Positions 2,399 to 50,132 of a stretch of DNA of 64,000 nt are shown here, piece by piece. Both the position numbers and the translations under genes were made by a program. The number at the start of each line of letters is the position of its first letter. Position 1 is the first letter of the stretch. The DNA is from Patescibacteria group bacterium (GTDB lineage Bacteria > Patescibacteriota > Minisyncoccia > Minisyncoccales > UBA10102): contig JANBVJ010000001.1 in the NCBI GenBank assembly GCA_024239055.1, forward strand, positions 496,572 through 560,571, in the 5' to 3' direction. Below the pieces are notes generated by a model that was given only the letters and a program-made list of their open reading frames with translations, was not told the origin of the DNA and did no database searches.

Positions 2399-2763
2399 AG
2401 CAAATTTTATTCATTGAAGACGAATCAGCACTTCAGAAAACCATAGGGGAGTCGCTCAGACAGGAAGACTTTGAGGTGTTATCAGCTCTTGATGGGGAGA
2501 TAGGAATACGGACTGCAAAAGAGAAGCGTCCGGATCTTATTATTTTAGACCTTGTACTTCCCAAGAAAGATGGTTTTGAGGTTTTAGAAGATTTAAAAAA
2601 AGGAGAGGGAACTAAAAATATTCCTGTTATTGTTCTTACAAATCTAGAGGATTTAAAGGGCATACAGCGAGCTATTGATTTGGGAGCAACCACATATTTA
2701 GTAAAGTCCAATTACCGATTGGACGAGGTCGTGGAAAAAATCAAAGGTGTACTTTCCTCATGA
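2395..2763 (+). CDS. Stand-alone response-regulator receiver (CheY/PilH-like)
   Basis: 122 aa with receiver motifs (IEDE, DLIILDLVLPKKDG, VIVLTN...K) and no output domain. Its start overlaps the kinase stop by 4 nt. Confidence 0.85.
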   Translation: MKQILFIEDESALQKTIGESLRQEDFEVLSALDGEIGIRTAKEKRPDLIILDLVLPKKDGFEVLEDLKKGEGTKNIPVIVLTNLEDLKGIQRAIDLGATTYLVKSNYRLDEVVEKIKGVLSS

Positions 2764-4502
2764 AGGTTGAGAACCAGCAGTTAAAGGCCTTTCTCTTGGA
2801 CTCGGGTTTAGTGAAGAAAAAGGATTTAGATGCAGCTGATAAAAAGGCAGCTAAGACAAAAAAGCGTTTGTCTGATGTGCTGCTTGCGGGAGGCTTTATC
2901 TCAGAGGAGGAGCTGATTAAGATGGAAGCTTACATCTTGGGTATTCCTTTTGTAAACTTGATAGAAGAGAAGATTCCTTCTGAGATATTAAAACTTATTC
3001 CAGAACCTATTGCTCGCTCTCACAACATTGTGGCTTTCCGTAAAAAAGGCCAGGAGCTTGAAGTTGCTATGTTGGATCCCGAGGATTTGGCAACTATAGA
3101 CTTTATTAGAAAGAAGTCTAATCTCAAAATTCTTCCACGGCTTACGACCCCAGAGGGTATGAAGCAGGTCTTGCGCCAGTACTCAAAGACCTTGGAAGCT
3201 GAATTCGGGGATATTATTAAAAAGGATGTTGGCGGCATTAAATCTCTCAGAGATAAGGGTTTGGATGAAGGAAAAAATCTTAAAAAAACGGCGGAAGAGC
3301 TCCCTGTCATCCGTATCGTAGATACCTTGTTAAAGCATGCAATTCTACAGCGTGCTTCTGATATTCATATTGAACTTACTGAGAGAGAGGTTTTAGTACG
3401 TTATCGTATTGACGGTGTACTTCGTGACGCGATGGTGCTTCCCAGACAGGCCACCTCTGGTATAGTGGCGCGTATTAAAGTGCTGGCTAATTTAAAACTA
3501 GACGAGCATCGACTTCCTCAGGATGGTAGATTTAAAGTAGAGGCAGAGGAATATAAGTACTCTGTCCGTGTCTCAATTCTTCCGGTATTCGGGGGCGAGA
3601 AGGTGGTTATGCGTTTGCTTTCTGAAACCGCTGATGCCTTTACTTTAGAAGAACTTGGATTGCGTGGAGTGGCTCTAGAGGTTATACAGGATGGATTGAA
3701 ACGCCCGGTTGGCATGATTTTGGTCACAGGTCCCACGGGTTCAGGTAAAACTACCACTCTGTATTCCATGATGGAGATTTTAAATACACCTGAGGTGAAT
3801 ATCTCTACAGTAGAAGATCCCATAGAGTATAGGATGCCGCGTATTAATCAGACTCAGGTGAATTCAAGAATTGGGCTTACCTTTGCCTCAGGTCTCAGGT
3901 CTCTTTTGCGTCAGGACCCTGATATTATGATGGTAGGAGAGATTAGAGATAAGGAGACCGCGGGTCTTGCCATTAATTCAGCATTAACCGGGCACCTAGT
4001 GCTTTCTACTCTTCATACTAATAATGCCGCTGGGGCTGTACCAAGATTGATTGATATGAAAGTGGAACCATTTCTCATTTCTTCTACTTTAAGTGTTATC
4101 GTGGCGCAGCGATTAGTACGGAGACTGTGTGAGGATAAAAAAGAGTATAAACTTTCTCAAAAAGATATAGTTGAAATTGGGAAATACTGCGATCTGAAAA
4201 AAGTACTCAGTATGATACAAAAAGAGAAGGGAGCGAACGTAAAGACTATAGGAGATGTTGTGTTTTATCATCCTCAGGTAAAAAAGGTATGCCCCGATGG
4301 ATATAAGGGACGAGTTGGAATTTATGAAGTTATGCCAGTGACAGAAACCTTAAAACAGTTGTTCGTGAATGGAGCCACATCAGATCAGATTCAGGAAAGA
4401 GCGGTCACAGAAGGTATGGTTACTATGGTAGAGGATGGTCTTATAAAGGCTGCCCAAGGACTGACTTCTATTGAAGAGGTTCTGAGGGTTATTACTGAGT
4501 AA
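2760..4502 (+). CDS. pilB: Type IV pilus assembly ATPase PilB/GspE, copy 1
   Basis: T2SS-E N-terminal domain, RLPQDGRF, Walker A GPTGSGKTTTLYSM, Asp/His boxes and a C-terminal Cys cluster. Confidence 0.9.
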   Translation: MKVENQQLKAFLLDSGLVKKKDLDAADKKAAKTKKRLSDVLLAGGFISEEELIKMEAYILGIPFVNLIEEKIPSEILKLIPEPIARSHNIVAFRKKGQELEVAMLDPEDLATIDFIRKKSNLKILPRLTTPEGMKQVLRQYSKTLEAEFGDIIKKDVGGIKSLRDKGLDEGKNLKKTAEELPVIRIVDTLLKHAILQRASDIHIELTEREVLVRYRIDGVLRDAMVLPRQATSGIVARIKVLANLKLDEHRLPQDGRFKVEAEEYKYSVRVSILPVFGGEKVVMRLLSETADAFTLEELGLRGVALEVIQDGLKRPVGMILVTGPTGSGKTTTLYSMMEILNTPEVNISTVEDPIEYRMPRINQTQVNSRIGLTFASGLRSLLRQDPDIMMVGEIRDKETAGLAINSALTGHLVLSTLHTNNAAGAVPRLIDMKVEPFLISSTLSVIVAQRLVRRLCEDKKEYKLSQKDIVEIGKYCDLKKVLSMIQKEKGANVKTIGDVVFYHPQVKKVCPDGYKGRVGIYEVMPVTETLKQLFVNGATSDQIQERAVTEGMVTMVEDGLIKAAQGLTSIEEVLRVITE

Positions 4503-20677: not shown

Positions 20678-21181
20678 TTAAGCCTCTTTCTTCTCTTCTT
20701 TTTTAGGAGTTTCCTCTTTCTTTTCTGCTTCTACTGGCTTTTCTTCAGTAGTGGTTTCTTCTTTCTGTTCTGGTTCTTTTTGAGGCGTTTCTTCTGGAGC
20801 TTTCTCTTCCTCTGGCTCCTCGAATACCAGACCTACGGATTCCGCTTTTAGTCGTGCCTTTCTACCCTTTGCATTTCTTAGATAGTAGAGCTTGGCTCTT
20901 CTTACCTTAGCTCTGTTGATTACCTCTATTTTTTCAAGCACGGGTGAGTGAAGGGGAAATGTTCTCTCTACTCCATACCCTTTGCTTACTCTTCTTACAG
21001 TGATAGTTGCTGTAGGCCCTGAGCCATGTTTGTGGGCCAGGACTACTCCTTCAAAGACCTGGATTCGTTCCCTATCGCCTTCTTTAATCTTTTGGTGTAC
21101 ACGAACTGTATCTCCGGGTCTAATATCTGGGGTTGTTTTTTTCACCTGTGTTTTTTCAAATGTAGCTAACTTTTCGTTCAT
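20678..21181 (-). CDS. rplS: Ribosomal protein L19 with a K/E-rich C-terminal extension
   Basis: L19 core ([27 protein letters not shown]...RRAKLYYLR) followed by a tail of about 55 aa rich in E, K, P and T. Confidence 0.9.
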
Positions 21182-21852
21182 GATAATTTCTTGAGTATTT
21201 CATTCAGATCTTTTGGAAGCTCAGAAGTGAATTCTTCTATGGTGTCGTTTGGAAACGGAATTCTCAGAGAAGAGGCATGAAGGAAGTGCCTGTTTAATCC
21301 TTCTGGCGTAGGCTGTCCTTTAAAGCCGTACATCTTGTCTCCTGCGAGTGGGTGACCAATAGAAGCTAAATGTACTCGTATCTGATGCTTCCTTCCTGTT
21401 TTAGGTTTTACCTCCAATAGAGTGTAATCTTCAAACCTTTGGAGTACGCGATACGCAGTTTCAGCTTCTCGCTTCCCTTTGGCTTTGGGATCTGCTGGAA
21501 GAAATACCTTTTGTTTTCTTCTGTCAGAGGGAGCTCTCCCCAAGAGGGTTGTGATGCTTCCCTCCTCCTGTTTCACTTTGCCCACCACAAGACAGATGTA
21601 GGTTTTCTCAACCTTTCTCTGCTTGAACTGTTCTTGAAAGAACTTAAATGACTCTGGTGTTTTAGCAACCAGCAAGAGTCCTGACGTATCTTTATCCAGA
21701 CGATGGACAATACCATATCTCATTTCCTCTCCCAGCTCCTTTTGTTCAGGAATCTGGTTAATTAGCAGATTTGGTATATCAGATACAGACAGAGCAGCTG
21801 GTTTATCCAACACGAGCACTATATCATTCTTTGAGAGTATTTTCAATAGCAT
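21178..21852 (-). CDS. RluA-family pseudouridine synthase (no S4 domain)
   Basis: Catalytic motif [15 protein letters not shown], plus YICLV and HQIRVHL motifs. Confidence 0.85.
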
Positions 21853-21856
21853 TTTG

Positions 21857-21929
21857 TGGGCAATACAGGACTTGAACCTGTGACCTCCTCAATGTCAATG
21901 AGACGCTCTAGCCAGCTGAGCTAATTGCC
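21857..21929 (-). tRNA. tRNA-Val (anticodon GAC)
   Basis: Minus-strand acceptor GGGCAAT/ATTGCCC and anticodon arm TCTCA-TTGACAT-TGAGG. Confidence 0.9.
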
Positions 21930-22006
21930 CTGGTGGGCCAGGCAGGATTCGAACCTGCAAACCGGCAAGATATAAGCTTGCTGCTCTACCATTGAGCTAC
22001 TGGCCC
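21930..22006 (-). tRNA. tRNA-Ile (anticodon TAT), CCA encoded
   Basis: Minus-strand acceptor GGGCCAG/CTGGCCC, A73 and a perfect anticodon stem GCAAG/CTTGC around loop CTTATAT, giving anticodon UAU. Confidence 0.85.
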
Positions 22007-23826
22007 CTTTTCTTCCCTATAAGCTTCTCAAATTCCTCTTGTTCTAGGGTTTCCTTTTTTATAAGGGTTTTTGCTATTTTAGCAAGGGTTGTGCGTCTTT
22101 TTCTAAGAATATCCTCTGCTTTCTTAAGAGAAGATTCCAAGAGATTTTTTACTTCTTTGTCTATTTCGTTGGCAACTTCGTCAGAATAGTTGCGATATTC
22201 TCTTGCGTCTCTTCCCAAGAATATCATCTCTTCTTTCTCTCCAAAGGTAACAGGCCCGAGTTTTTCTGACATCCCGTATGTCTTTATCAGGGCTCTGGCA
22301 ACCTCAGATGCTTTTTGAAGGTCGTCTGAGGGACCCGTGGTAATGTCTTTAAAGATGAGACGTTCTGCAGCATATCCTCCCATGAGAACCGTAAGCTCGT
22401 CTAAGAAATCTGCTTTTGATCTAAGGTGCTTGTCTTCTGTCGGAAGTTTTAAGGTGTATCCTCCGGTATTGCCGCGAGAGATAATAGATACCTTTCTTAT
22501 TGGGTCGGCACCAGGTAGGGAGGCGGCCACTAAAGCATGTCCTCCTTCGTGGTAGGCTGTTATCTCCTTTTCTTTTTTAGAAAGTATGTGGCTCTTTCTT
22601 TCAGGTCCGAGTAATACCTTATCTATGGATTCTAAGATATCTGCCTGAGAAATTTGTTTTTTATTGCGACGTGCAGCAAGAATTGCAGATTCATTCACAA
22701 GATTAGCTAAATCAGCTCCTGAAAATCCTGGAGTTCGTTCTGCAACTTCTCGGAAATTGACGGCAGAGGAAGGGACTATTCGTGCATGAATTTTGAGAAT
22801 TGCTTCTCTGTCATTTATATCTGGGAGGTCCAATATAATCCTTCTATCAAATCTTCCAGGACGCAGGAGAGCTGAATCTAATACATCAGGACGGTTGGTA
22901 GCAGCCATCACAATTCTTGTGTCATCTCTCTCAAAACCATCCATCTCAACTAAGATTTGGTTTAAGGTTTGTTCTCTTTCATCATGCCCTCCTCCGTATC
23001 CTGCTCCACGCGTGCGTCCAATGGCGTCTAATTCATCAATAAAGATGATACTCCTGCCTGCTTTTTTGGCGGTTCCGAAGAGATCTCGTACACGGGATGA
23101 ACCTACCCCTACAAACATCTCAATGAATTCAGAACCCGAAGCCGAAAAGAAAGGAACCCCGGCTTCCGCCGCCACAGCTCTTGCGAGTAAAGTCTTTCCT
23201 GTGCCCGGAGGTCCAACCAGTAATACTCCCCTTGGAATTTTAGCTCCAATAGCTAAGTATTTCTTTGGATGTTTCAAGAAGTCTACTACTTCTTCCAATT
23301 CTTGTTTTGCTTCTTTAAGTCCCGCTACGTCTTTAAAGGTAATGCGTTCCTTGTCCTGTCCATCAGCTCCAAAGAGCCTTGCTTTGGCTTTCGTAAAGTC
23401 AAAGGCTTGAGAGACTCCAGCTTTGGCTTGTCTGAACATGAAGAAAAAGAAGAGTCCGAATAAAAGCAGAGGGATAAGAATGTAAGACAGTGGAAGCAGA
23501 AGAGCTGCTAGACCAGAAGGGTTTTTTTGCTCAATAATAAGAGAGGAGAGTTTTTCTGGTACAACCCCAAGATTTAAGAGAGTTTCAGATAGAGCCGCTC
23601 CCTGTTCCTTTTGTGATTCAGCTTTCCCTCCGTCTGTATATACAACAAGTAGTTTTTCACCCTCTATTGTTACTCTTTCTATCTTTTCTGAATTAATATC
23701 CTGTACTAATTCAGATAGTGATATCTCATTTTTCTCCTCAAAGGGATTTGCAAATAGCGCAAAAGCCAAAGAGATTCCAATGAGAATCAGAATAATGACA
23801 ATAAAGTTCTTTGATAGAGATTTCAT
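21997..23826 (-). CDS. ftsH: ATP-dependent zinc metalloprotease FtsH
   Basis: N-terminal TM helices, AAA+ Walker [12 protein letters not shown], Walker [12 protein letters not shown] and the Zn motif HEGGHAL. Confidence 0.95.
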
Positions 23827-23922
23827 GACGGATATATTGTAGCATAATTTAGGGGAAATTCAAGGAAAAAAAGTGCCCCCATGCCTACTTTTGATAGTAG
23901 AACACGGGGGCGGATCCTTTTG

Positions 23923-24981
23923 TTAGGATCTTGCTACTGCTTTTTTGTTTCCTCCATTCCCATTCCGATGAGCCTGACTTCGTATGGCACGGCATCGGAT
24001 AAGTCCAAGGTCGTACAATGGACAGAGGTCTTGCGGTGTTGAAGAGCATTGTCCCGTTTCACAAGTCTGTTGCCGTGTGGGTTCGTAGGTTCTCTCCAAT
24101 CCCAGTTCAATTGCCGAGAGGATTTCATCGAGCGAGAGTCTGGTTGGCGGAATATCCGGTCTGGATTTGCTGCCATTCATGACGTTGTTGGAATCTCGAT
24201 GGAAGAACCACTCGGTTACCTCGTCACATTCCTGATCTTCCAGGTAACGCCATTGTGGCAGGTCTTTGCTTTCTATTCCTTTCTTTCCGGCTTCCTTGAT
24301 TCGCAGGATGCGAACGATATCCCGCATATCAAGGGCAAACGAGTTGGTAGCGAGTATTTGGGTGTGATCATCTGGATGCCTAATCACTACGATAGCCGCA
24401 CCCTCATACCTTGCCATTCTGACGGTTGCGTCTTGCGGTTTCCGGATTACCGCAATCCAGCTTTCTCCTCCCCAGAGGTTGAACTCATGGCGTTCAATGT
24501 CCATGAGGTTTACCTGAAAGAACTCCTTTTGCTCCATCCACGCCGCTCGGATATCGTCTTCCGCGTGTTGGACTACTTCTGAGAGCGCCCAGTGCTTCTG
24601 TAGAAGCATTACGGTTCTCGAAAGATGAAGCGCAAGATTTGGAGGGTTCTTGTCGGTGTGAAGGACATCGTTTAGTATGCGGCTCCACCTGGGATCATTG
24701 TCCAACCCCAAATGCTTTGCGACAAGTGTCGCACAGCACTCTTTCGAGCGCTGTTCTTCAGGCAGTCCGTGTTCGTCGAAGAGTCCTCTCCCTACTCCCA
24801 GTAGAATGACATCCTTCCGTTTTGTCAGTTTCTCTACAGACTCGCCTTTCGCTAGGGTACGGAATTCGGCGTCCATAACACCTGGGAATTCATCCTCTCC
24901 ATGTCTCCAGAGTAAAATGGCTCCCAGAATTTCATCAAGGTGTGCGGGGCTTCCGTGAGTGACGATTTCTTTAATCATCAA
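23923..24981 (-). CDS. Hypothetical protein in a higher-GC patch, possibly a MYG1/UPF0160-like metal-dependent hydrolase
   Basis: 352-aa ORF with an AGGAGAGG SD; the ATG at 24978 is the likely start. N-terminal THGSPAHLDEILGAILL resembles the MYG1-family THxGxFHxDE motif. There are no other recognisable motifs. Confidence 0.35.
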   Translation of the reverse strand: MMIKEIVTHGSPAHLDEILGAILLWRHGEDEFPGVMDAEFRTLAKGESVEKLTKRKDVILLGVGRGLFDEHGLPEEQRSKECCATLVAKHLGLDNDPRWSRILNDVLHTDKNPPNLALHLSRTVMLLQKHWALSEVVQHAEDDIRAAWMEQKEFFQVNLMDIERHEFNLWGGESWIAVIRKPQDATVRMARYEGAAIVVIRHPDDHTQILATNSFALDMRDIVRILRIKEAGKKGIESKDLPQWRYLEDQECDEVTEWFFHRDSNNVMNGSKSRPDIPPTRLSLDEILSAIELGLERTYEPTRQQTCETGQCSSTPQDLCPLYDLGLIRCRAIRSQAHRNGNGGNKKAVARS

Positions 24982-25080
24982 CCTCTCCTATTGTGATTGT
25001 GCGCAGACAACATGTCTGTGTGCTAACTTATATTATACATTTTAATCTTCTATTTGTCAATGCTTCTTCCCTCTTAAATA

Positions 25081-25785
25081 ATGAGGTATAGTTATGATAT
25101 GAAGTACATTATTGTATTACTTTTACTCTTTCCTATATTTGTTTCAGCTCAACCTATTATTAATGAGATTGCCTGGATGGGTTCTTTGGTGGAAGGCGTG
25201 GATTCGGGACAGGAGTGGAGGTACGAATGGATTGAGTTGTTTAATGAGGGAGATACGATTGTATTAGATGGTTGGTCAATTGAGCTCTACCGTGATAAGT
25301 TAGATTTTTCTATTCCGCTTTCCGGTATTCTGTATTCTGGTGAATATTTGGTTTTTGGTGCATCAGATAAAATTACAGGAGTAGATGTTTCTTATAGTAA
25401 CCTTGGGGGAAAGTTTATGAATGGAGGGCAGAGAGTTGTCTTGCGTAATAGCAGTGGGATTGTTGAGGAATTGAATGCAAGAGATGGATGGTTTGCTGGA
25501 AGCAACAGAGATAAAAAGACCATGGAGCGCAAGGATTCTCTGAGGGACGCAGGAGATACTGGAAACTGGGGAACCTCTTTGTTAGTTGGCGGGACGCCAG
25601 GCTTTGAGAATACTTTGTATGGAACATATGGCAGAGAGGTATCTTTGAGTTTTGGAGAATCCAAAAAAGACCTTAGTAGGTCTTCTTCTATTAATCTTCC
25701 TTTGTATGCTGCAGCTTCTCTTACCGCTCTGGGTTCTGTTCTGACGGCGCTGTTTCTACGACGTCGTCTGCGCTTTCCGTGGTAA
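25081..25785 (+). CDS. Secreted lamin-tail-domain (LTD) protein with a C-terminal TM anchor
   Basis: Signal peptide (alternative start at 25099, MKYIIVLLLLFPIFVSAQ), LTD motifs PIINEIAWMG...EWIELFN...LDGWSIE, and a C-terminal hydrophobic helix plus RRRLR. Confidence 0.65.
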   Translation: MRYSYDMKYIIVLLLLFPIFVSAQPIINEIAWMGSLVEGVDSGQEWRYEWIELFNEGDTIVLDGWSIELYRDKLDFSIPLSGILYSGEYLVFGASDKITGVDVSYSNLGGKFMNGGQRVVLRNSSGIVEELNARDGWFAGSNRDKKTMERKDSLRDAGDTGNWGTSLLVGGTPGFENTLYGTYGREVSLSFGESKKDLSRSSSINLPLYAAASLTALGSVLTALFLRRRLRFPW

Positions 25786-26887
25786 TGGGTTCTGAACCCA
25801 ACTTTAAACTCATTCTGTGCTCTTCTGGGTTAATCTCCAGGATAGTAAAGTCATAGGTTTCTCCCTCTTTGAGTTTTTCTGCCATTGCCGATTCCGTCCC
25901 AAACTCTGATATATGAGTTAATCCCTGTATTAGGGGTTCAATTTCCACAAAAGCACCAAAGTGGTTGAACTTTTTTACCTTGCCCTTAACTACGTCCCCC
26001 CTTTTATACTTTCCTTCAACTCCCTTCCACGGGTCTTCCTTTAGAGCCTTAATAGATAGGGATACCTTGTCGTTTGTAATATCAATAATCTTGGCTTTTA
26101 CTTTTTCTCCAACTTTTAATACTTGGCCGGGGTCTTCAATAATCTGCCAGTCAATCTCTGAGATGTGAATTAATCCCTCAACCTGTTCCTCTTCTTTTCC
26201 AAAGCGAATAAATGCTCCAAAGTTTACAATTCCTGTAATCTCACCCTCTACTTCTTGGTCTACCTTGTATTGGGTTAGAGCTTCCTTTATCTTATCTTTG
26301 TCTCGTGCACGTTCAGATAGAATAAGCTTGTCTTCCTTTGGATTCATATCTATAGCTTGAACTTCAAGATCTTTGCCAATAAAGTCTTCTAGCTGTTCTA
26401 AGACCTTATTCATGTCTCCATTCTCGACTCTTGGATAGTGCTCTTGGGAAAGTTGGGATACCGGCAGGAATGCCTGGATTCCAAATGCTTCAGCCAAGAG
26501 CCCTCCTTTATTAGCCCCTGTAATTTTGACTGTTATATTCTCTTCTTTTTCCATGCTTTCTTTAACCTTTTTCCATGCCATCTCACGTCCAGCTTCACGG
26601 AGTGAGAGCTCAACATATCCTTCCTCATTATCTAAATCTTTTATTTTTGCGGTAATGGTAGCTCCAACAGTCGCGTCTTTTAAAGCTGACTTTTCATCCA
26701 AAAACTCCCGTCCGTATATAACACCGGTTCCCTGTGGTCCCAAGTCAAGATAGGCAGCTGATCTTCCTATTCCAATAATTTTACCCTCAACAACATCTCC
26801 CACACGAAGTGGTTTTATTGCAGTTGTTTTAGATTCTATGGTTTGTTCCATGCTGTCAAGTGTACACAATATATACATATTTTTCAA
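25721..26887 (-). CDS. rpsA: Ribosomal protein S1 (four S1 domains)
   Basis: Repeated S1 OB-fold motifs (GDVVEGKIIGIG, VEGEITGIVNFGAFIRF, GDVVKGKVKKFNHFGAFVEI). The start is ambiguous: TTG 26887, ATG 26878 or ATG 26851. Confidence 0.85.
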   Translation of the reverse strand: MKNMYILCTLDSMEQTIESKTTAIKPLRVGDVVEGKIIGIGRSAAYLDLGPQGTGVIYGREFLDEKSALKDATVGATITAKIKDLDNEEGYVELSLREAGREMAWKKVKESMEKEENITVKITGANKGGLLAEAFGIQAFLPVSQLSQEHYPRVENGDMNKVLEQLEDFIGKDLEVQAIDMNPKEDKLILSERARDKDKIKEALTQYKVDQEVEGEITGIVNFGAFIRFGKEEEQVEGLIHISEIDWQIIEDPGQVLKVGEKVKAKIIDITNDKVSLSIKALKEDPWKGVEGKYKRGDVVKGKVKKFNHFGAFVEIEPLIQGLTHISEFGTESAMAEKLKEGETYDFTILEINPEEHRMSLKLGSEPITTESADDVVETAPSEQNPER

Positions 26888-34847: not shown

Positions 34848-35554
34848 TATGTAGTTATTTTTGTTGTAATTCTTTTTAAGTATTTAAATGCAACGAAGAG
34901 GAATATTCCAAGTCCTGTAAGTATAAGGACGGGATAGAGTAGTTGCTCCACTCCCTGCCCCTTGATTATATAAATATTAAAGAGTCCGTGCAAGAAGGTA
35001 GCAACTCCCAATCCAATTGGAATGGCAAAAAGGCGTTGCCGGGGATTAAGAATAGAGATTGCAATGAAGTAGCCGAAGGTTCCAGAAACCAGAGCATGGA
35101 GGAGGGTCGCTCCCACAAACCGGAATGCAGAAAGCGCAAGTACATCTCCTCCGGGGGCAGCAAATCCAAGGCCAAATAGAATGAAGATGTTTTCCAAAGC
35201 CGCAAATCCAAGGGCTGAGATAATCATATACAAAGGAACATCTATTGCTTCATCTAGGGCTTTATTGTGTAAGACCACAAAGTGAAAGACTCCGTACTTT
35301 AAGACTTCTTCTACCAGAGCTATTACAATGAATATATAAAGGTAGAAGGTAATGGTTTCTGACAAAGCAAAGGACTTAAGGAACGGAAGGAGACCAAGTT
35401 CAATAAGAACTGCGGGAATGGTGACAAGCATGCCCCAGAAAAACACCTTTATGATCATGCGGTTGGGTTCTGGATGCACATCTGTTCTTAAGTAAAAGGC
35501 AAGCCAGATTAAACTTGGTACAATGCCAAAGATAATGGCTAGAGGTATTATCAT
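34847..35554 (-). CDS. PrsW-family intramembrane protease
   Basis: Polytopic membrane protein with EEVLKYG and HALVSG / HGLFN motifs. Confidence 0.7.
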   Translation of the reverse strand: MIIPLAIIFGIVPSLIWLAFYLRTDVHPEPNRMIIKVFFWGMLVTIPAVLIELGLLPFLKSFALSETITFYLYIFIVIALVEEVLKYGVFHFVVLHNKALDEAIDVPLYMIISALGFAALENIFILFGLGFAAPGGDVLALSAFRFVGATLLHALVSGTFGYFIAISILNPRQRLFAIPIGLGVATFLHGLFNIYIIKGQGVEQLLYPVLILTGLGIFLFVAFKYLKRITTKITT

Positions 35555-37725
35555 GTAGGCCAGGATTCAATCATTATGGTTGTCTGCTTCTTTTGCAAAG
35601 GTAGTTGCTGGTAGATTTCTTCTGTAATAAAGGGCATGAAAGGATGGAGGAGTTTTAAGGAATCTCCTAATACTTTTACTAATACATACTGACGGGCTGC
35701 TCTTGTTTTTGTATTATTGAGAATTGGTTTTGAGTCTTCAATTACCTTGTCAGCATACGTATGCCAGATGTAATGGTAGAGATTTTCGGCTGCATGGGAG
35801 AAACGGAATTCATCCAATGCTTTTGTTGTCTGTTTCACTATCTTCTCAAAGTTCTTTAGTATCGCCTTGTCTTTTACACTTAGGGTTGGGCGTTTATTTT
35901 GGTTATAGTTTTTTGTTTCCAAATGCACAAATCGGGAGATATTCCAGAGTTTGTTTACAAAGTTTCTATATCCTCTAATTTTATCCTCTGATATTGCAGT
36001 ATCTTTACCCGGCATATTTCCAATAGTCAAGGCTATTCTTAAAGCATCAGTACCGTAAGTGTCAATAACGCCTAAAGGATCAATTACATTACCCTTTGAC
36101 TTTGACATCTTTTGTCTATCTTTATCGCGTACAAGCCCATGTAGGTATACATACTTAAAAGGAGCTTTCTTTGTTTGGTATATAGAAAGCATCATCATTC
36201 TAGCTACCCAGAAGAATAAGATGTCAGCTGCCGTTTCCATTACGTCAGTTGGATAGAAGGTTTTAAAGTCTTTGTGGTTAGGATACTTTAGAGTTGCAAA
36301 AGGCCACTGACTGGAAGAGAACCATGTATCAAATACATCTTCATCTTGTTTGAGATTCTTCCCTTTGCATTTACTGCAAGAGGTTGGTTTCTTCCCATCT
36401 GTCACAGTCCATTCGCCTTTTGGGCAGTCTTCGCATAGCCATGCAGGAATTGATATGCCCCACCAGTTCTGGCGTGATATATTCCAGTCTCTAATATTGT
36501 TCATCCAGTGAAAGTAAATCTTCTCGTAGTTTTTTGGAAGAATGGTAGTCTCTTTTTCTTTTACCGCCTTAATAGCTTCCTTTGCTAACGGTTTTGTCTT
36601 TACAAACCACTGGCGCATGAGCATGGGTTCAATAACATTGTTGCATTTGTAACAGAGGGCTATTGTGTGTTCATAATCTTCATCTATCTTTTCAATTAAT
36701 CCTTTGGTCTTCATGTCTTTTACAATCTTTTCTCTGGCTTCTTCAACTTTCATACCCTCATATAGTCCTGTATTTTCATTTAGTCTTCCGTCCAGGCCGA
36801 TTACCTGAAGGGGTCCTTCAATCTCTTTTTTGTGGCGTTCCCACATAGCAAAGTCATTGGCATCGTGGGCTGGTGTTACCTTTACCGCTCCCGTTCCAAA
36901 CTCAGGGTCTACCTCTTTGTCTGCAATTACTTTAAGAGTTCGTTTGCCTACAACTGTTTCTATTTTTAATTCTTTTCCAATATATTTCTTGTATCTTTTG
37001 TCATCTGGATGTACTGCAATTGCGGTATCTCCAAACTTGGTTTCAGGACGTACGGTAGCTACAACAATTGGACCGTATTTCATATAATATAGAGGGTCTT
37101 TTCTTGTCTCATGCTTTATTTCAAGATCAGCAAAGGCAGTCCTGTGTTTTGTGCAGTAGTTTACAAGACGCTCACCTCGATAGACCAATCCTTCATCTGC
37201 CATTTTCTTGAAGGTCTTGTATACCGTCTTTATGATATGCGCATCTAAAGTAAAGGTGTCTCGCGTCCAGTCGCAGGAGGCTCCGAGTTTCTTTAGCTGC
37301 TCCTTTACTGTTTTCCTGTTTTTTTGTGTATAGTCCCACACTTCCTTGTAGAACTCCTCTCTTTTCATATCAAAGCGGGATCTTCCCTGTTTTGCCAGCT
37401 TCTTTTCATATACAACCTGTGTCTCAAATCCTGCGTGGTCGGCTCCCGGCAGCCATAGAGTTTTCTTTCCCTGCATTCTATTGTAGCGAATAAGTATGTC
37501 TTCTAAGGTTACAAAGACCGCATGTCCTACGTGCAGAGGATCATTTGCATTGGGAGGCGGCATTAAGATAGTAAAAGGAGTTTTGTGTCTTTTGGGGAGT
37601 TTGTCTGGATTAAAAAACCCGCTCTTTTCCCAGAGCTTGTATATTCTATCCTCTACCTTTTTTGCCTCGTATGCCTTGTTGAGTTCTGCCATATATTGAG
37701 GTATTGTATCATACTTTAGAGGCAA
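35551..37725 (-). CDS. valS: Valyl-tRNA synthetase (short form)
   Basis: PPPNANDPLHVGHA (HIGH), WLPGADHAGFETQ and KMSKSKGN. Confidence 0.9.
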   Translation of the reverse strand: MPLKYDTIPQYMAELNKAYEAKKVEDRIYKLWEKSGFFNPDKLPKRHKTPFTILMPPPNANDPLHVGHAVFVTLEDILIRYNRMQGKKTLWLPGADHAGFETQVVYEKKLAKQGRSRFDMKREEFYKEVWDYTQKNRKTVKEQLKKLGASCDWTRDTFTLDAHIIKTVYKTFKKMADEGLVYRGERLVNYCTKHRTAFADLEIKHETRKDPLYYMKYGPIVVATVRPETKFGDTAIAVHPDDKRYKKYIGKELKIETVVGKRTLKVIADKEVDPEFGTGAVKVTPAHDANDFAMWERHKKEIEGPLQVIGLDGRLNENTGLYEGMKVEEAREKIVKDMKTKGLIEKIDEDYEHTIALCYKCNNVIEPMLMRQWFVKTKPLAKEAIKAVKEKETTILPKNYEKIYFHWMNNIRDWNISRQNWWGISIPAWLCEDCPKGEWTVTDGKKPTSCSKCKGKNLKQDEDVFDTWFSSSQWPFATLKYPNHKDFKTFYPTDVMETAADILFFWVARMMMLSIYQTKKAPFKYVYLHGLVRDKDRQKMSKSKGNVIDPLGVIDTYGTDALRIALTIGNMPGKDTAISEDKIRGYRNFVNKLWNISRFVHLETKNYNQNKRPTLSVKDKAILKNFEKIVKQTTKALDEFRFSHAAENLYHYIWHTYADKVIEDSKPILNNTKTRAARQYVLVKVLGDSLKLLHPFMPFITEEIYQQLPLQKKQTTIMIESWPT

Positions 37726-38770
37726 ACCGTAAGTTGGGTAGAGCTTTTAGTTCCTTCATATTTTTTGCAATAGCGCCTTTCTTAAAGCGATAGTATCCCG
37801 CCACACCAATCATAACAGCGTTGTCTCCACAGAGCTCTACGGGAGGAATAAAAAGAGGAATATTCTTAAATGTTTTTTGAAACTGGGCTCTTAGTTCTTT
37901 GTTTGCGATAACTCCTCCTCCAATTATGATACTCTTTGCCTGGTATTCCAAAGCCGCTCTTTTTGTCTTTTTTAACAGAACATCAATGATTGCCTGCTGT
38001 ATTTCTTTTGCCATGGCTCTTACATAGGGGAGAGTAATTGTATGTTTTTTTGCTTGGTAGAGTACAGCTGTTTTTAAACCAGAAAAGCTAAAGTCATAAT
38101 CTTTGGTGTATAGCATGGGACGGGGAAGGGATACCTTAATGTTGGAGGACTCATCTGCTTTTTTTGAAATCTCAGGGCCTCCTGGATATGGAAGTCCCAA
38201 GATGCGGGCTGTTTTGTCAAAGCATTCGCCAGCGGCATCGTCCCTAGTTTCGCCAATTAAAGAGTAGTCTCCAATAGCTTTTATTAATACGAGTTGTGTA
38301 TGGCCTCCTGAAACCGTAAGGCCAATTGCAGGAAAGATGTTCTTTGTATCCACATTGAGCAGAGAAACTAGGAGGTGTCCTTCCATATGATCTGTTGGAA
38401 TTAAGGGAATACCCCATTTAAAAGCCAATTCTGTAGCTTTATTTAAACCGGTCCACAGGCATGGTGAGAGGCCAGGTCCTATAGTTACAGCTATTGCGTC
38501 TATATCAGGTTTTGTTGTAGATAACTTGGCTTTCTTTAAAGCTTCTTTAACAACCATAGGGAGATTCTTTTCATGTTCACGCTTTGCTAGCATAGGGTAT
38601 ACGCCACCGTATTCTCGATGTAGCTCTATTTGCGAGGAGACTATATTTGAGAGTATGGTAAACTTGCCATCCTCTATATTAAGAACCGCAGCTGCTGTTT
38701 CATCACAAGATGTTTCAATTCCTAGTATCTTCATACTATGTGTTGTATCCTTTTCCTTGATTTTTTGCAA
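37709..38770 (-). CDS. tsaD: tRNA N6-adenosine threonylcarbamoyltransferase TsaD
   Basis: ILGIETSCDETAAAV, the HMEGHLL metal site and VSGGHTQL. The probable true start is the ATG at 38734. Confidence 0.9.
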   Translation of the reverse strand: MQKIKEKDTTHSMKILGIETSCDETAAAVLNIEDGKFTILSNIVSSQIELHREYGGVYPMLAKREHEKNLPMVVKEALKKAKLSTTKPDIDAIAVTIGPGLSPCLWTGLNKATELAFKWGIPLIPTDHMEGHLLVSLLNVDTKNIFPAIGLTVSGGHTQLVLIKAIGDYSLIGETRDDAAGECFDKTARILGLPYPGGPEISKKADESSNIKVSLPRPMLYTKDYDFSFSGLKTAVLYQAKKHTITLPYVRAMAKEIQQAIIDVLLKKTKRAALEYQAKSIIIGGGVIANKELRAQFQKTFKNIPLFIPPVELCGDNAVMIGVAGYYRFKKGAIAKNMKELKALPNLRFASKV

Positions 38771-42529: not shown

Positions 42530-42531
42530 TG

Positions 42532-42604
42532 TATCCCCGGCAGGATTTGAACCTGCGGCCTCTTGGTCCGCAACCAAGCGCTCTATCCGCTGAGCTACGG
42601 GGAC
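42532..42604 (-). tRNA. tRNA-Arg (anticodon GCG)
   Basis: Minus-strand acceptor GTCCCCG/CGGGGAT and anticodon arm CTTGG-TTGCGGA-CCAAG. Confidence 0.85.
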
Positions 42605-43578: not shown

Positions 43579-44553
43579 TTAATTCTTTGTAGAGTTTTCA
43601 ATGTATTTTTTGTAATTAATAAGTGATTTTCGTCTTTTTTTAATATATATTTTTTGATTTAGTATTAATGAGCGCTTTAATTTATTTTTTGTTCTATCGA
43701 TTTTCGATTTTGTTTTTCCACCAATAGATAATCTGTTTCTATACATTTTTAATCCTAGATGTTCCATACCTTCTTCATGAGATATTATATCTTTTTTGGA
43801 ATCATTTAGAGGAAGTCCTTGATTTTTATCTATTAAGAATAATTGTTTAATTTCATCATAAAGTTTTTCCATCTGAGCTTTTGAAACTCTACTTGCAGTT
43901 ATACCTATGTCATCTACATAAATTGCTATGCGTGGATCTTTGCCTTTCAAACGTTTTTTTACAAGTTGATCAAGTTTTAAAAAGATATCAAGATTACACC
44001 ATATGGCTAGTCGTGATGATGTAGCAAATCCACGTGCTATTGTTTTTTGCGTATTAGGATTTTCTTTTGGACCAATTGGAACACAACAAAATTTTGCTAG
44101 TAATCTAGCTCCTGTTTCACTACACTCACATTTGTTTCTAAAAAAATGATATACTCTTTCTTCACTAATTTGTTCAAAAAAATGGGTTATATCTAATTTC
44201 AATATAGTCCGTTCTCTTTTTACGCCAAGTAAATGTTTTACAGCTTTTGTGTGATTTAATTTTTTAACACCTCCAAAAATAAAATTAGGGAGCATCTTAT
44301 CATGAGGAGCTAGAACAGTTTTATTTATATTATCTAATAATCTACCTAATGGAGTTCTTTTTGCACTTCGGACATATTTTTCTTTTTCTGGCTCTGATTG
44401 GCTTTTATTATCTCTCCAATAATTATCGAAGTTTTTTATAACATCATTTATTAATACTAGTACATCTTCTTTTGGGAATTTAGTATGACTTAGATGTTTT
44501 GCTAATTCATTTTTGCTTCGTATATAAAGTCTTGGATATCGTCTATTTTCCAT
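43579..44553 (-). CDS. Reverse transcriptase, small retron-like / defence-type RT
   Basis: 324 aa with RT motifs FIFGGVKKLNHTKAVKHLLG, ILKLDITHFFEQIS (motif A Asp), IARGFATSSRLAIWCN, IAIYVDDIGITAS (YxDD) and GLPLNDSKK...EHLGLKM. It has no maturase or endonuclease domains. The gene is very AT-rich. Confidence 0.8.
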   Translation of the reverse strand: MENRRYPRLYIRSKNELAKHLSHTKFPKEDVLVLINDVIKNFDNYWRDNKSQSEPEKEKYVRSAKRTPLGRLLDNINKTVLAPHDKMLPNFIFGGVKKLNHTKAVKHLLGVKRERTILKLDITHFFEQISEERVYHFFRNKCECSETGARLLAKFCCVPIGPKENPNTQKTIARGFATSSRLAIWCNLDIFLKLDQLVKKRLKGKDPRIAIYVDDIGITASRVSKAQMEKLYDEIKQLFLIDKNQGLPLNDSKKDIISHEEGMEHLGLKMYRNRLSIGGKTKSKIDRTKNKLKRSLILNQKIYIKKRRKSLINYKKYIENSTKN

Positions 44554-44869
44554 CTTGTTTCAAAAGTTTTGCACGATTCTTAATTAAATGTTCCTGTAGT
44601 TTTTCACCAAACTCAATAAGCCTTTTTTCTATTTTTGAGAGATTTTGTTCGGATTCGTTTTTATTATAATAAAGAAAAGGAGTAATTGATGATGGATGTA
44701 TTTTTAAGCTTTCAGCAATTTTTGTGATTAAATTTTTCGATACATCTTTTTGGCCTGTTTCTACCATAGCAATAAGTACAGTAGAAACACCGATAGCTTT
44801 TGCAAATTCAGCTTGTGTCAGTCCAGCCTCATTTCTTATTTCTTTTAATAATTCTGGGAAAGTATACAT
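44543..44869 (-). CDS. XRE-family helix-turn-helix protein
   Basis: LKEIRNEAGLTQAEFAKAIGVSTVLIAMVETGQKDVSKNLITKIAESL is a canonical XRE HTH. Its stop overlaps the RT start by 11 nt (ATGGAAAATAG). Confidence 0.85.
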   Translation of the reverse strand: MYTFPELLKEIRNEAGLTQAEFAKAIGVSTVLIAMVETGQKDVSKNLITKIAESLKIHPSSITPFLYYNKNESEQNLSKIEKRLIEFGEKLQEHLIKNRAKLLKQDGK

Positions 44870-48404: not shown

Positions 48405-50132
48405 ATGAGTACTCTTACGCGACTTGTAAAACAAAAGGTTATTACAAAAGAACAGGCATCTGAGTTGGAGGCTGCAGCTCAGTCTGCTTCAGTTTCAGTT
48501 GAAGAGTTGGCGCTCCAGAAGAATATTGTTAACGAGGATATTCTATTTTCTGCAAAGGCTGAAGAGTTAAAACTTCCACTGCGTAAAGTGACAGCGGAAT
48601 CCATTTCTCCTGAGATTCTAGAATTAATACCAGAGGATTCTGCAAAGTACTATCGCATAGCCCCACTCTCTTTAAAGAACAATAAGTTGGAAGTTGGCAT
48701 GGTGGAACCCGAAAACACGCAAGCCCAGCAGGCACTGAAGTTCTTGGCGCGCCAGGGGAACTTCTCTTATGTTTCAGCTTTGATTACCCCTTCTACATTT
48801 CATAAAATCTTTGCTCAGTATCGGAATACGAAGACGGAAACCGGCAAGGTGCTAGAGGAACTGGAACAAGAGATAAAGATAGAAAAACCTACTACATTAA
48901 GAGATGCGGTACAGAGGCTTGTTGAGGAGGCTCCTGTTACCAAGATGGTTGCCGTTATCTTAAGAACTGCTGTTGAGGGAGGAGCATCTGATATTCATGT
49001 GGAACCTGTAAAAGACAGGTTGCGAGTGAGATTCCGTTCTTTAGGGGAACTTCACTCTTCTTTGTTTTTGCCAGCGAACGTGCATCAGACTATTATTGCG
49101 AGAATCAAGATTCTTGCCAATTTAAAGATTGACGAGAGCCGTACTCCTCAGGATGGTAGGTTTTCTGCCACGATTGATGACAAGTCTGTGGATTTTCGTG
49201 TTGCAACCTTTCCTACAGCGTTAGGTGAGAAGGTGGCAATTAGAGTATTGGATCCATCTAAGGGTCTCAAGGGTCTTGAGAATCTTGGTTTGGAGGGAAC
49301 AAACCTCACAAAGGTAAAAGAAGCCTTAAAAAAGCCATTTGGTCTTGTACTTTCTACCGGCCCCACGGGTTCTGGTAAGACAACTACGCTTTACTCAATG
49401 CTCAGCTCTATAAACCGAGAAGGAGTAAATATTGTGAGCTTGGAAGATCCAATTGAGTATTTAATAAAAGGAGTGAATCAGTCCCAGATACGGCCTGAAT
49501 TGGGATATGACTTTGCCCAGGGACTGCGCCAAGTGCTTAGGCAAGACCCAGATATTATTATGGTAGGTGAGATTAGAGACATTGAGACTGCCTCCCTCGT
49601 GACACATGCGGCCTTAACCGGGCATATCGTGCTCTCTACTCTTCATACCAACAACGCCGGGAGTGTGGTGATAAGGTTGTTAAATATGGGAGTGGATAAA
49701 TATCTTATTCCGGCCACCCTTTCCATTGCTTTGGCGCAGCGTCTTGTGCGGCGCTTGTGCGATGCCTGCAAGGAAGCTGTTCCTGCATCAAAGGAGATTA
49801 GAGAACTTATGATAAAAGAGCTTGAGTCAGCTCCGCCTTCTCTTCAAAAACAACTTGCTTCTCATCTTTCAAATAAGGAGAGCATTAAGGTGTACAAAGC
49901 AGTGGGATGTAAGAAGTGCGGGGGGTCTGGATACTCAGGACGCACTGGAATATTTGAGGTTGTGGAGATGACGCCACAGCTTGCTGCCATTATTCTTTCT
50001 GAACCTACAGAATCCAAGATTACGCAAGAGCTTAAGGCTCAAGGTATGGTAACAATGGCTCAAGATGGGTTTGCCAAGGTATTGGATGGCGTGACAACGC
50101 CAGAGGAGATATTGCAGCAGACCGGCGAATGA
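48405..50132 (+). CDS. pilB: Type IV pilus assembly ATPase PilB/GspE, copy 2
   Basis: T2SS-E N-terminal domain, RTPQDGRF, Walker A GPTGSGKTTTLYSM and a tetracysteine motif CDAC...CKKCGGSG. Confidence 0.9.
   Translation: MSTLTRLVKQKVITKEQASELEAAAQSASVSVEELALQKNIVNEDILFSAKAEELKLPLRKVTAESISPEILELIPEDSAKYYRIAPLSLKNNKLEVGMVEPENTQAQQALKFLARQGNFSYVSALITPSTFHKIFAQYRNTKTETGKVLEELEQEIKIEKPTTLRDAVQRLVEEAPVTKMVAVILRTAVEGGASDIHVEPVKDRLRVRFRSLGELHSSLFLPANVHQTIIARIKILANLKIDESRTPQDGRFSATIDDKSVDFRVATFPTALGEKVAIRVLDPSKGLKGLENLGLEGTNLTKVKEALKKPFGLVLSTGPTGSGKTTTLYSMLSSINREGVNIVSLEDPIEYLIKGVNQSQIRPELGYDFAQGLRQVLRQDPDIIMVGEIRDIETASLVTHAALTGHIVLSTLHTNNAGSVVIRLLNMGVDKYLIPATLSIALAQRLVRRLCDACKEAVPASKEIRELMIKELESAPPSLQKQLASHLSNKESIKVYKAVGCKKCGGSGYSGRTGIFEVVEMTPQLAAIILSEPTESKITQELKAQGMVTMAQDGFAKVLDGVTTPEEILQQTGE

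Follow-up and report, generated by a model that had tools for sequence, protein, structure and literature searches.

A tRNA-Ile with the anticodon UAU, conserved beside ftsH in Patescibacteria, as the likely replacement of lysidine-dependent AUA decoding

How does a bacterium read the isoleucine codon AUA when its tRNA-Ile carries the anticodon UAU? Discrimination between AUA and AUG is a classic weak point of the genetic code. In the canonical bacterial system, C34 of a tRNA-Ile2(CAU) is turned into lysidine-34 by the enzyme TilS, a PP-loop ATPase (PF01171), and textbooks treat a bacterial tRNA-Ile(UAU) as a rare exception. The stretch of DNA analysed here (64,000 nucleotides, hereafter the window) encodes such a tRNA at the 3' end of ftsH (Table 1). 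We consider it probable that it is a functional minor tRNA-Ile whose UAU anticodon pairs directly with AUA and which most likely replaces the tRNA-Ile2(CAU)/TilS lysidine system.

ARAGORN, run on the 64-kb window, called the gene as a tRNA-Ile with the anticodon tat, so that tRNA software returned the same isotype and anticodon as an earlier reading made without database searches (the sequence-only reading). The gene scored 70.5 bits with the Rfam model RF00005 (gathering score 29), which ranks it third among the 20 tRNAs of the window. Its sequence is GGGCCAG-TA-GCTC-AATGGTA-GAGC-A-GCAAG-CTTATAT-CTTGC-CGGTTT-GCAGG-TTCGAAT-CCTGC-CTGGCCC-A-CCA, with the anticodon loop C32-U33-U34-A35-U36-A37-U38 and a genomically encoded 3' CCA. 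The anticodon stem GCAAG/CTTGC, the loop CTTATAT, the anticodon TAT, A73 and the Ile-like 5' half that had been described earlier all agree with this read-out. The start at 21930 was off by one, since base 21930 is the first of tRNA-Val(gac) and the tRNA-Ile starts at 21931.

Table 1. Features of the window around the tRNA-Ile(UAU) gene and other genes referred to in the text.
Feature	Position	Strand	Basis or remark
tRNA-Ile(UAU)	21931..22006	-	ARAGORN, Rfam, sequence, 53 syntenic homologues with covariation
tRNA-Val(GAC)	21856..21930	-	ARAGORN, sequence
ftsH (AAA + M41 protease)	21997..23826	-	Pfam, coordinates, synteny; conserved anchor gene
Slot between S1 and ftsH	23827..25720	.	No TilS; holds the 352-aa ORF and the LTD-domain ORF
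352-aa ORF, no family match	23923-24981	-	Pfam, NCBIfam and PDB sequence searches without match
LTD-domain ORF	25081-25785	+	In the slot between S1 and ftsH
S1-domain (RpsA-like) protein	25721..26887	-	Pfam; upstream neighbour defining the tilS slot
RluA-family pseudouridine synthase	21178..21852	-	Pfam; just downstream of both tRNAs
rplS	20678-21181		Downstream of the RluA-family pseudouridine synthase gene
TsaD, t6A37 synthesis subunit	37709..38770	-	NCBIfam TIGR03723, 373 bits
ValRS	35551-37725	-	724 aa; valS models covered to about position 700 of 860
Reverse transcriptase (RVT_1)	43579-44869	-	Adjacent HTH_3 regulator; beside a tRNA-Ser/tRNA-Arg cluster

The identity set recognised by the IleRS of E. 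coli comprises A73, U12-A23, C4-G69, A35-U36, A37, C29-G41 and A38. The window tRNA has the full set of A73, U12-A23, C4-G69, A35-U36 and A37; at the other two places it has A29-U41 and U38, not the C29-G41 and A38 of E. coli. Among 54 copies of the UAU tRNA (those of the 53 relatives described below and that of the window) the 29-41 pair covaries freely and position 38 is C in 34, A in 14 and U in 6 copies. C29-G41 and A38 are therefore E. coli-specific elements that are not kept in the UAU family. The origin of the UAU tRNA could not be read from pairwise identity: compared with all other tRNAs of the loci and with approximate sequences of Ile1, Ile2 and Met from E. coli, it reached 0.72-0.76 with many isotypes, without discrimination. 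Because these identities do not discriminate, we infer its descent from tRNA-Ile2(CAU) from the locus and from loop and stem features.

Read on the ftsH strand, the gene order is Lactamase_B_3 (on the opposite strand), S1, the LTD ORF (opposite), the 352-aa ORF, ftsH (its product is NCBI MCP6726963.1), tRNA-Ile(UAU), tRNA-Val(GAC), the RluA-family gene and rplS. The last 10 nt of ftsH are positions 1-10 of the tRNA-Ile (22006-21997), and its TAG stop codon at 21999-21997 forms tRNA positions 8-10. The tRNA-Val(GAC) begins at the base right after the CCA of the tRNA-Ile, with a spacer of zero (21930/21931). In the relatives, the distance from ftsH to the tRNA is mostly +9 to +200 nt and not an overlap, the Ile(UAU)-Val pair is found again in many of them, and the CCA is encoded in only 10 of the 54 UAU tRNAs of the clade. 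If ftsH and the tRNA-Ile are co-transcribed in the host, cleavage by RNase P at the 5' end of the tRNA-Ile would strip the stop codon off the ftsH mRNA.

The S1 protein is kept upstream of ftsH in 32 loci and directly adjoins ftsH in seven of them (L005, L009, L012, L017, L018, L024 and L030). In the window the two genes are separated by a slot that is occupied by other ORFs. For the 352-aa ORF, a MYG1/DHH-like function was considered on account of the N-terminal motif THGSPAHLDE and rejected, as neither Pfam nor NCBIfam nor PDB sequence searches gave a match. Its homologues occur in only three loci (L011, L014 and L029), and the ORF is therefore not part of a conserved UAU system. A perfect sigma-70 consensus promoter (TTGACA-17-TATAAT) lies ahead of the ORF at 25060-25032; the scan for promoters and terminators as a whole yielded consensus-level hints only, with no excess over shuffled sequences. 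The RluA-family pseudouridine synthase on the other side of ftsH was likewise discarded as a candidate modifier of U34/U36, since its gene accompanies the UAU tRNA in no more than 11 loci, all of the subclade to which the window belongs.

The host belongs to the Patescibacteria (CPR), within the Parcubacteria/Paceibacteria group and close to the Wildermuthbacteria. In a neighbour-joining tree of FtsH the window clusters with L002, L003, L004 and L029 (Wildermuthbacteria), and a neighbouring hypothetical protein falls in a cluster of at least 90% identity with a protein from a Candidatus Wildermuthbacteria MAG. The gene content is also typical of CPR, with T4SS_pilin genes, two type IV pilus clusters and DUF6580. 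The two pilus gene sets have their PilB at 2760-4502 and 48405-50132, and the window furthermore encodes large Big_13/PKD surface proteins.

The codon AUA is in heavy use in this genome. In the 57 non-overlapping ORFs of the window it makes up 23.4 per 1000 codons and 28% of the isoleucine codons, is commoner than AUC and occurs in 56 of the 57 genes, including ftsH, infB, gyrA, valS and recG. In an alignment of 81 FtsH sequences, the columns at AUA codons of the window contain I at a frequency of 0.43, V at 0.33 and M at 0.02; the columns at AUU codons have the same profile, and those at AUG codons contain M at 0.62. Judged by these profiles AUA is isoleucine in the host, which means that a capable decoder of AUA is needed. 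As AUA is so frequent, the tRNA-Ile(UAU) would do routine work in nearly every gene.

Relatives of the locus were collected by searching the window FtsH against one genome per GTDB species, which gave 80 loci with a best identity of 71%. Almost all are labelled Patescibacteria, Parcubacteria or "Candidatus X-bacteria"; the few labelled Gammaproteobacteria, Burkholderiales, Nanoarchaeia etc. look like mislabelled MAGs. A tRNA-Ile(tat) lies near ftsH in 53 of these 80 species-level loci (within 200 nt downstream in 28, within 1 kb in 45 and on the ftsH strand in 47). The premise of the sequence-only reading, that such a tRNA is rare in bacteria and confined to a few reduced genomes, thus does not hold within the phylum Patescibacteria. 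Seven of the 27 loci without it are uninformative, as they stop less than 500 nt past ftsH. The UAU loci account for two large clades of FtsH in the neighbour-joining tree, and a third clade is mostly without the UAU tRNA. By name, the lineages that bear it include Yanofsky-, Wildermuth-, Sungii-, Nomura-, Kaiser-, Taylor- and Adlerbacteria and Paceibacterota.

The stems of the 54 UAU tRNAs vary widely. C32, U33, the anticodon UAU and A37 are nevertheless present in all 54 copies, A73 in 52, U12-A23 in 51 and C4-G69 in 41. When 34 diverse copies were folded by RNAalifold, the cloverleaf came out again; 18 of its 21 base pairs show compensatory double changes, and the loop CUUAUA is invariant. 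Such a pattern marks the tRNA-Ile(UAU) as a gene that works and has long been under selection. A large clade of Patescibacteria shares it as a conserved trait, and it is no peculiarity of one genome.

The lysidine system was looked for with E. coli TilS (NC_000913.3) by tblastn and phmmer and then with an HMM built from E. coli TilS and two hits. With the HMM, L019 and L022 were the only ones of the 80 loci to show a tilS; in each of them the gene directly precedes ftsH, and a UAU tRNA is missing. The HMM had no match in the 64-kb window, whose slot between S1 and ftsH is occupied by unrelated ORFs, and none of the 54 UAU loci had a tilS within 10 kb of ftsH. Across about 80 kb (positions 205,688-285,068) of the contig, whose length is at least 568 kb, neither tilS nor IleRS nor a further relevant tRNA was found (positions refer to scaffold_9 of ENA ERZ23499938, 285,276 bp, on which the window spans about 214,262-278,261). 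The 20 tRNAs of the window include no CAU tRNA; initiator and elongator Met are absent as well, so this tRNA set is partial. From these regional results we infer that tilS and tRNA-Ile2(CAU) are probably absent from the whole genome. A query with E. coli IleS against the window, its flanks and all loci matched only the ValRS of the window. This ValRS seems to lack its C-terminal part.

Eight further contigs with TilS (L087-L094) all have tilS next to ftsH, and none of the eight has a tRNA-Ile(tat). The order is tilS-ftsH-murJ in L087-L089, with two CAU tRNAs upstream in L088 and L089, and S1-tilS-ftsH in L022 and L090-L094; in some of L090-L094 other genes intervene between S1 and tilS. With Lactamase_B_3 upstream as well, L090 and L091 share the backbone of the window. 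CAU tRNAs are nearby in three of the eight contigs (L088, L089 and L091); the one in L091, an Andersenbacteria MAG, lies beside a pseudouridine synthase-gmk-rplS group and, as we take it, closely resembles E. coli tRNA-Ile2. Taken together, the UAU tRNA occurs in 0 of 10 TilS loci versus 54 of 72 informative TilS-less loci (Fisher's exact test, p = 6e-6 with phylogeny ignored). The short, Patescibacteria-type TilS family is small, with a few dozen 90% clusters, and its named members come from Andersenbacteria, Moranbacteria and unclassified Parcubacteria/Patescibacteria, with no lineage named for the UAU loci among them. No confirmed relative came out of scanning metagenomes with only the TilS protein of L022.

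Near ftsH, about 18 informative loci lack both tilS and the UAU tRNA, which means that the AUA decoder is not always placed at this locus. Two UAU loci (L024 and L030) lie inside the FtsH clade that holds TilS loci, and mixed or transitional states are therefore possible in that clade. The median frequency of AUA is 24 per 1000 codons in UAU loci versus 11.5 in TilS loci, a gap that mostly follows GC content; a crude adjustment for GC leaves about +6 per 1000.

As a control we used 80 generic TilS loci of other bacteria (L097-L176); they came from a scan of JGI metagenomes with an alignment of Patescibacteria TilS, which yielded nothing but generic TilS of 30-45% identity. Within 6 kb of tilS, 22 of 24 tRNAs were CAU tRNAs; as a rule they directly precede tilS, and their loop is often CUCAUAU or CUCAUAC. 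The order tilS then ftsH occurred in 35 of the 80 loci, and tRNA-Ile(tat) in none. This indicates a widespread module tRNA(CAU)-tilS-ftsH in generic bacteria, and the AUA-decoding module thus adjoins ftsH in other bacteria too. The system of the window shares with the lysidine system its task (AUA as Ile) and its neighbourhood next to ftsH. TilS recognises E. coli tRNA-Ile2 by C4-G69 and C5-G68, and both pairs are present in the window UAU tRNA; moreover, 40 of the 54 UAU tRNAs have C or U at position 38, as do most CAU tRNAs beside tilS. It differs from the lysidine system in that position 34 of the gene is T, which leaves no C-to-lysidine step, and in that no tilS was detected in the region searched.

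The strongest competitor is a redundant decoder, in which tilS and tRNA-Ile2(CAU) are kept elsewhere in the genome and the UAU tRNA only adds capacity for a frequent codon. Some bacteria do have both LAU and UAU tRNAs, and the evolutionary scheme of Taniguchi et al. contains an intermediate stage with both decoders (Taniguchi et al., PMC3575796). Redundancy would also fit with the occurrence of tilS in some Patescibacteria, with a scan that covered about 80 kb of the at least 568 kb of the contig, and with the loci that have neither component at ftsH, which show that the module can sit elsewhere. Against it, the two decoders never co-occur in the 54 UAU loci or the 10 TilS loci, the conserved tilS slot by ftsH is empty or occupied by unrelated genes, and the small TilS family of the Patescibacteria type is without named members from UAU-bearing lineages. 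We therefore regard a redundant role as unlikely, though as the one alternative with some weight.

Much less probable is a change in the identity of the tRNA or the meaning of the codon, with the UAU tRNA charged with, for example, Met, or recruited from a non-Ile tRNA. AUA is read as Met in many mitochondria, U34 could in principle also read AUG, and overall sequence identity cannot assign the tRNA to one isoacceptor family. The FtsH columns contradict this, as those at AUA behave like those at AUU and hardly contain Met, unlike those at AUG, and A73, U12-A23 and C4-G69 are kept across the UAU family; we consider such a change very improbable. Less credible still, to the point that we give it next to no weight, is that the gene does not work for the host, being a pseudogene, a chance cloverleaf or a tRNA of a mobile element or phage. 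Nothing specific speaks for a mobile origin, the nearest hint being a reverse transcriptase gene about 21 kb off, and no mobile-element genes are adjacent. A non-working gene would fit neither with the high Rfam score nor with a position by ftsH that is kept in 53 species-level relatives along with compensatory changes in the stems. The reverse transcriptase itself could be that of a retron, a diversity-generating retroelement or a defence system.

A replacement of the lysidine system thus remains the preferred reading, and the alternative AUA-decoding strategy that the sequence-only reading had suggested is supported: AUA is frequent and means Ile, tilS is absent from the ftsH slot and from about 80 kb around it, and the UAU tRNA and tilS exclude each other at the loci. 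In the proposed mechanism, tilS would have been lost from the slot between S1 and ftsH, with the U34 tRNA located on the opposite side of ftsH. The 10-nt overlap and the zero spacer suggest that ftsH, tRNA-Ile(UAU) and tRNA-Val are most likely one transcript, from which the tRNA-Ile would be released by RNase P and 3' processing; an RNase P cut at the 5' end of the tRNA-Val would leave the CCA 3' end of the tRNA-Ile. Charging is presumably carried out by IleRS via A73, U12-A23, C4-G69 and A35-U36. ANN-decoding tRNAs carry t6A37 as a known rule, and since TsaD is encoded in the window and A37 is invariant in the UAU tRNAs, t6A37 is likely to be present on the tRNA-Ile(UAU) as well. The UAU anticodon would then read AUA directly, U34 making lysidine unnecessary. 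Avoidance of AUG could come from an unmodified U34 together with adaptation of the ribosome and IleRS, as in Mycoplasma mobile, or else from some modification of U34.

This type of mechanism is already known. A tRNA-Ile(UAU) without TilS is established in M. mobile, a few other Mollicutes, Bifidobacterium and Neorickettsia (PMC3575796), and the same strategy is used by M. haemofelis, M. suis and the deep-sea 'Ca. Spiroplasma holothuricola' (PMC5861454). In M. mobile the hallmarks are an IleRS with Arg865 at the position of E. coli W905, a U34 that stays unmodified and rejection of AUG by the ribosome (PMC3575796). The system described here is like that of M. mobile in the UAU encoded on a tRNA-Ile, the small reduced genome, the lack of tilS at the expected site and an A37 for t6A. 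In M. mobile, however, it arose as a tip-lineage event in a TilS-positive group, whereas here it is found in dozens of species-level CPR lineages in synteny with ftsH. In Bifidobacterium and Neorickettsia UAU is recognised via a horizontally acquired IleRS of the eukaryotic type (PMC3575796). There, as probably here, the UAU tRNA replaces tRNA-Ile2(CAU) without tilS, which in our case is read from about 80 kb. No IleRS gene was present in the window or the fetched loci.

The paper on tRNAscan-SE 2.0 lists 17 bacterial genomes with tRNA-Ile(UAU) and reports its use by the archaea Nanoarchaeum equitans and Korarchaeum (PMC8450103), and a 2026 preprint calls bacterial tRNA-Ile(UAU) "rare cases". 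The two archaea are similar to our case in that a U34 tRNA stands in place of one with a modified C34 (agmatidine or lysidine) and in being other ultra-small symbionts, but they, like the eukaryotes, belong to another domain of life. Eukaryotic tRNA-Ile(UAU) has a pseudouridine-A-pseudouridine anticodon. The gene for an RluA-family pseudouridine synthase next to the window tRNA recalls this, as a gene adjacency only and in one subclade. In our literature search, no paper linked CPR/Patescibacteria with lysidine, TilS or tRNA-Ile(UAU). What is new is the scale, with a deep and species-rich CPR clade, conserved synteny and abundant AUA.

Other parts of the tRNA set are also of note. The 20 tRNA genes that ARAGORN found in the window (1-64000) include several tight clusters. 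The CGN box is served in the window by a tRNA-Arg(GCG) at 42531-42604 (minus strand) and likewise by tRNA-Arg(GCG) in L041, and it is read by tRNA-Arg(UCG) in L015, L020 and L077. A tRNA-Arg(ACG) was found neither in the window nor in any Patescibacteria locus examined. There are hints that the TadA/inosine system, too, may have been replaced by directly decoding tRNAs. In four related loci ARAGORN called a tRNA-Ser with the unusual anticodon ACU beside tRNA-Ser(GCU) (L053, 16232-16319; L054, 15445-15530; L058, 14145-14232; L063, 17342-17431).

A broader reading, which we favour by a small degree only, is that a class-level Parcubacteria/Paceibacteria radiation dropped the lysidine system and reads its frequent AUA codons by a U34 tRNA tethered to ftsH at the old tilS locus. 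This radiation would include the Wildermuth-, Yanofsky-, Nomura-, Kaiser-, Taylor- and Adlerbacteria, with AUA at roughly 8-55 per 1000 codons. With AUA so common, the clade would need an efficient means to stop U34 from misreading AUG; if the class-level reading is true, a new U34 modification or a clade-wide adaptation of IleRS or the ribosome is possible. In that case tRNA-Ile(UAU) would count as a main way of decoding in bacteria and no longer as a rarity. If a large CPR clade uses the UAU tRNA as its standard, TilS would be no dependable universal bacterial marker or drug target there, and pipelines for tRNA annotation should reckon with Ile(UAU) in place of Ile2(CAU) in genomes of the clade. 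It would also offer many independent sequences for studying how IleRS and the ribosome accept U34 without mistranslating AUG, and it would fit a wider trend in which ultra-small genomes swap modification-dependent tRNAs for directly decoding ones.
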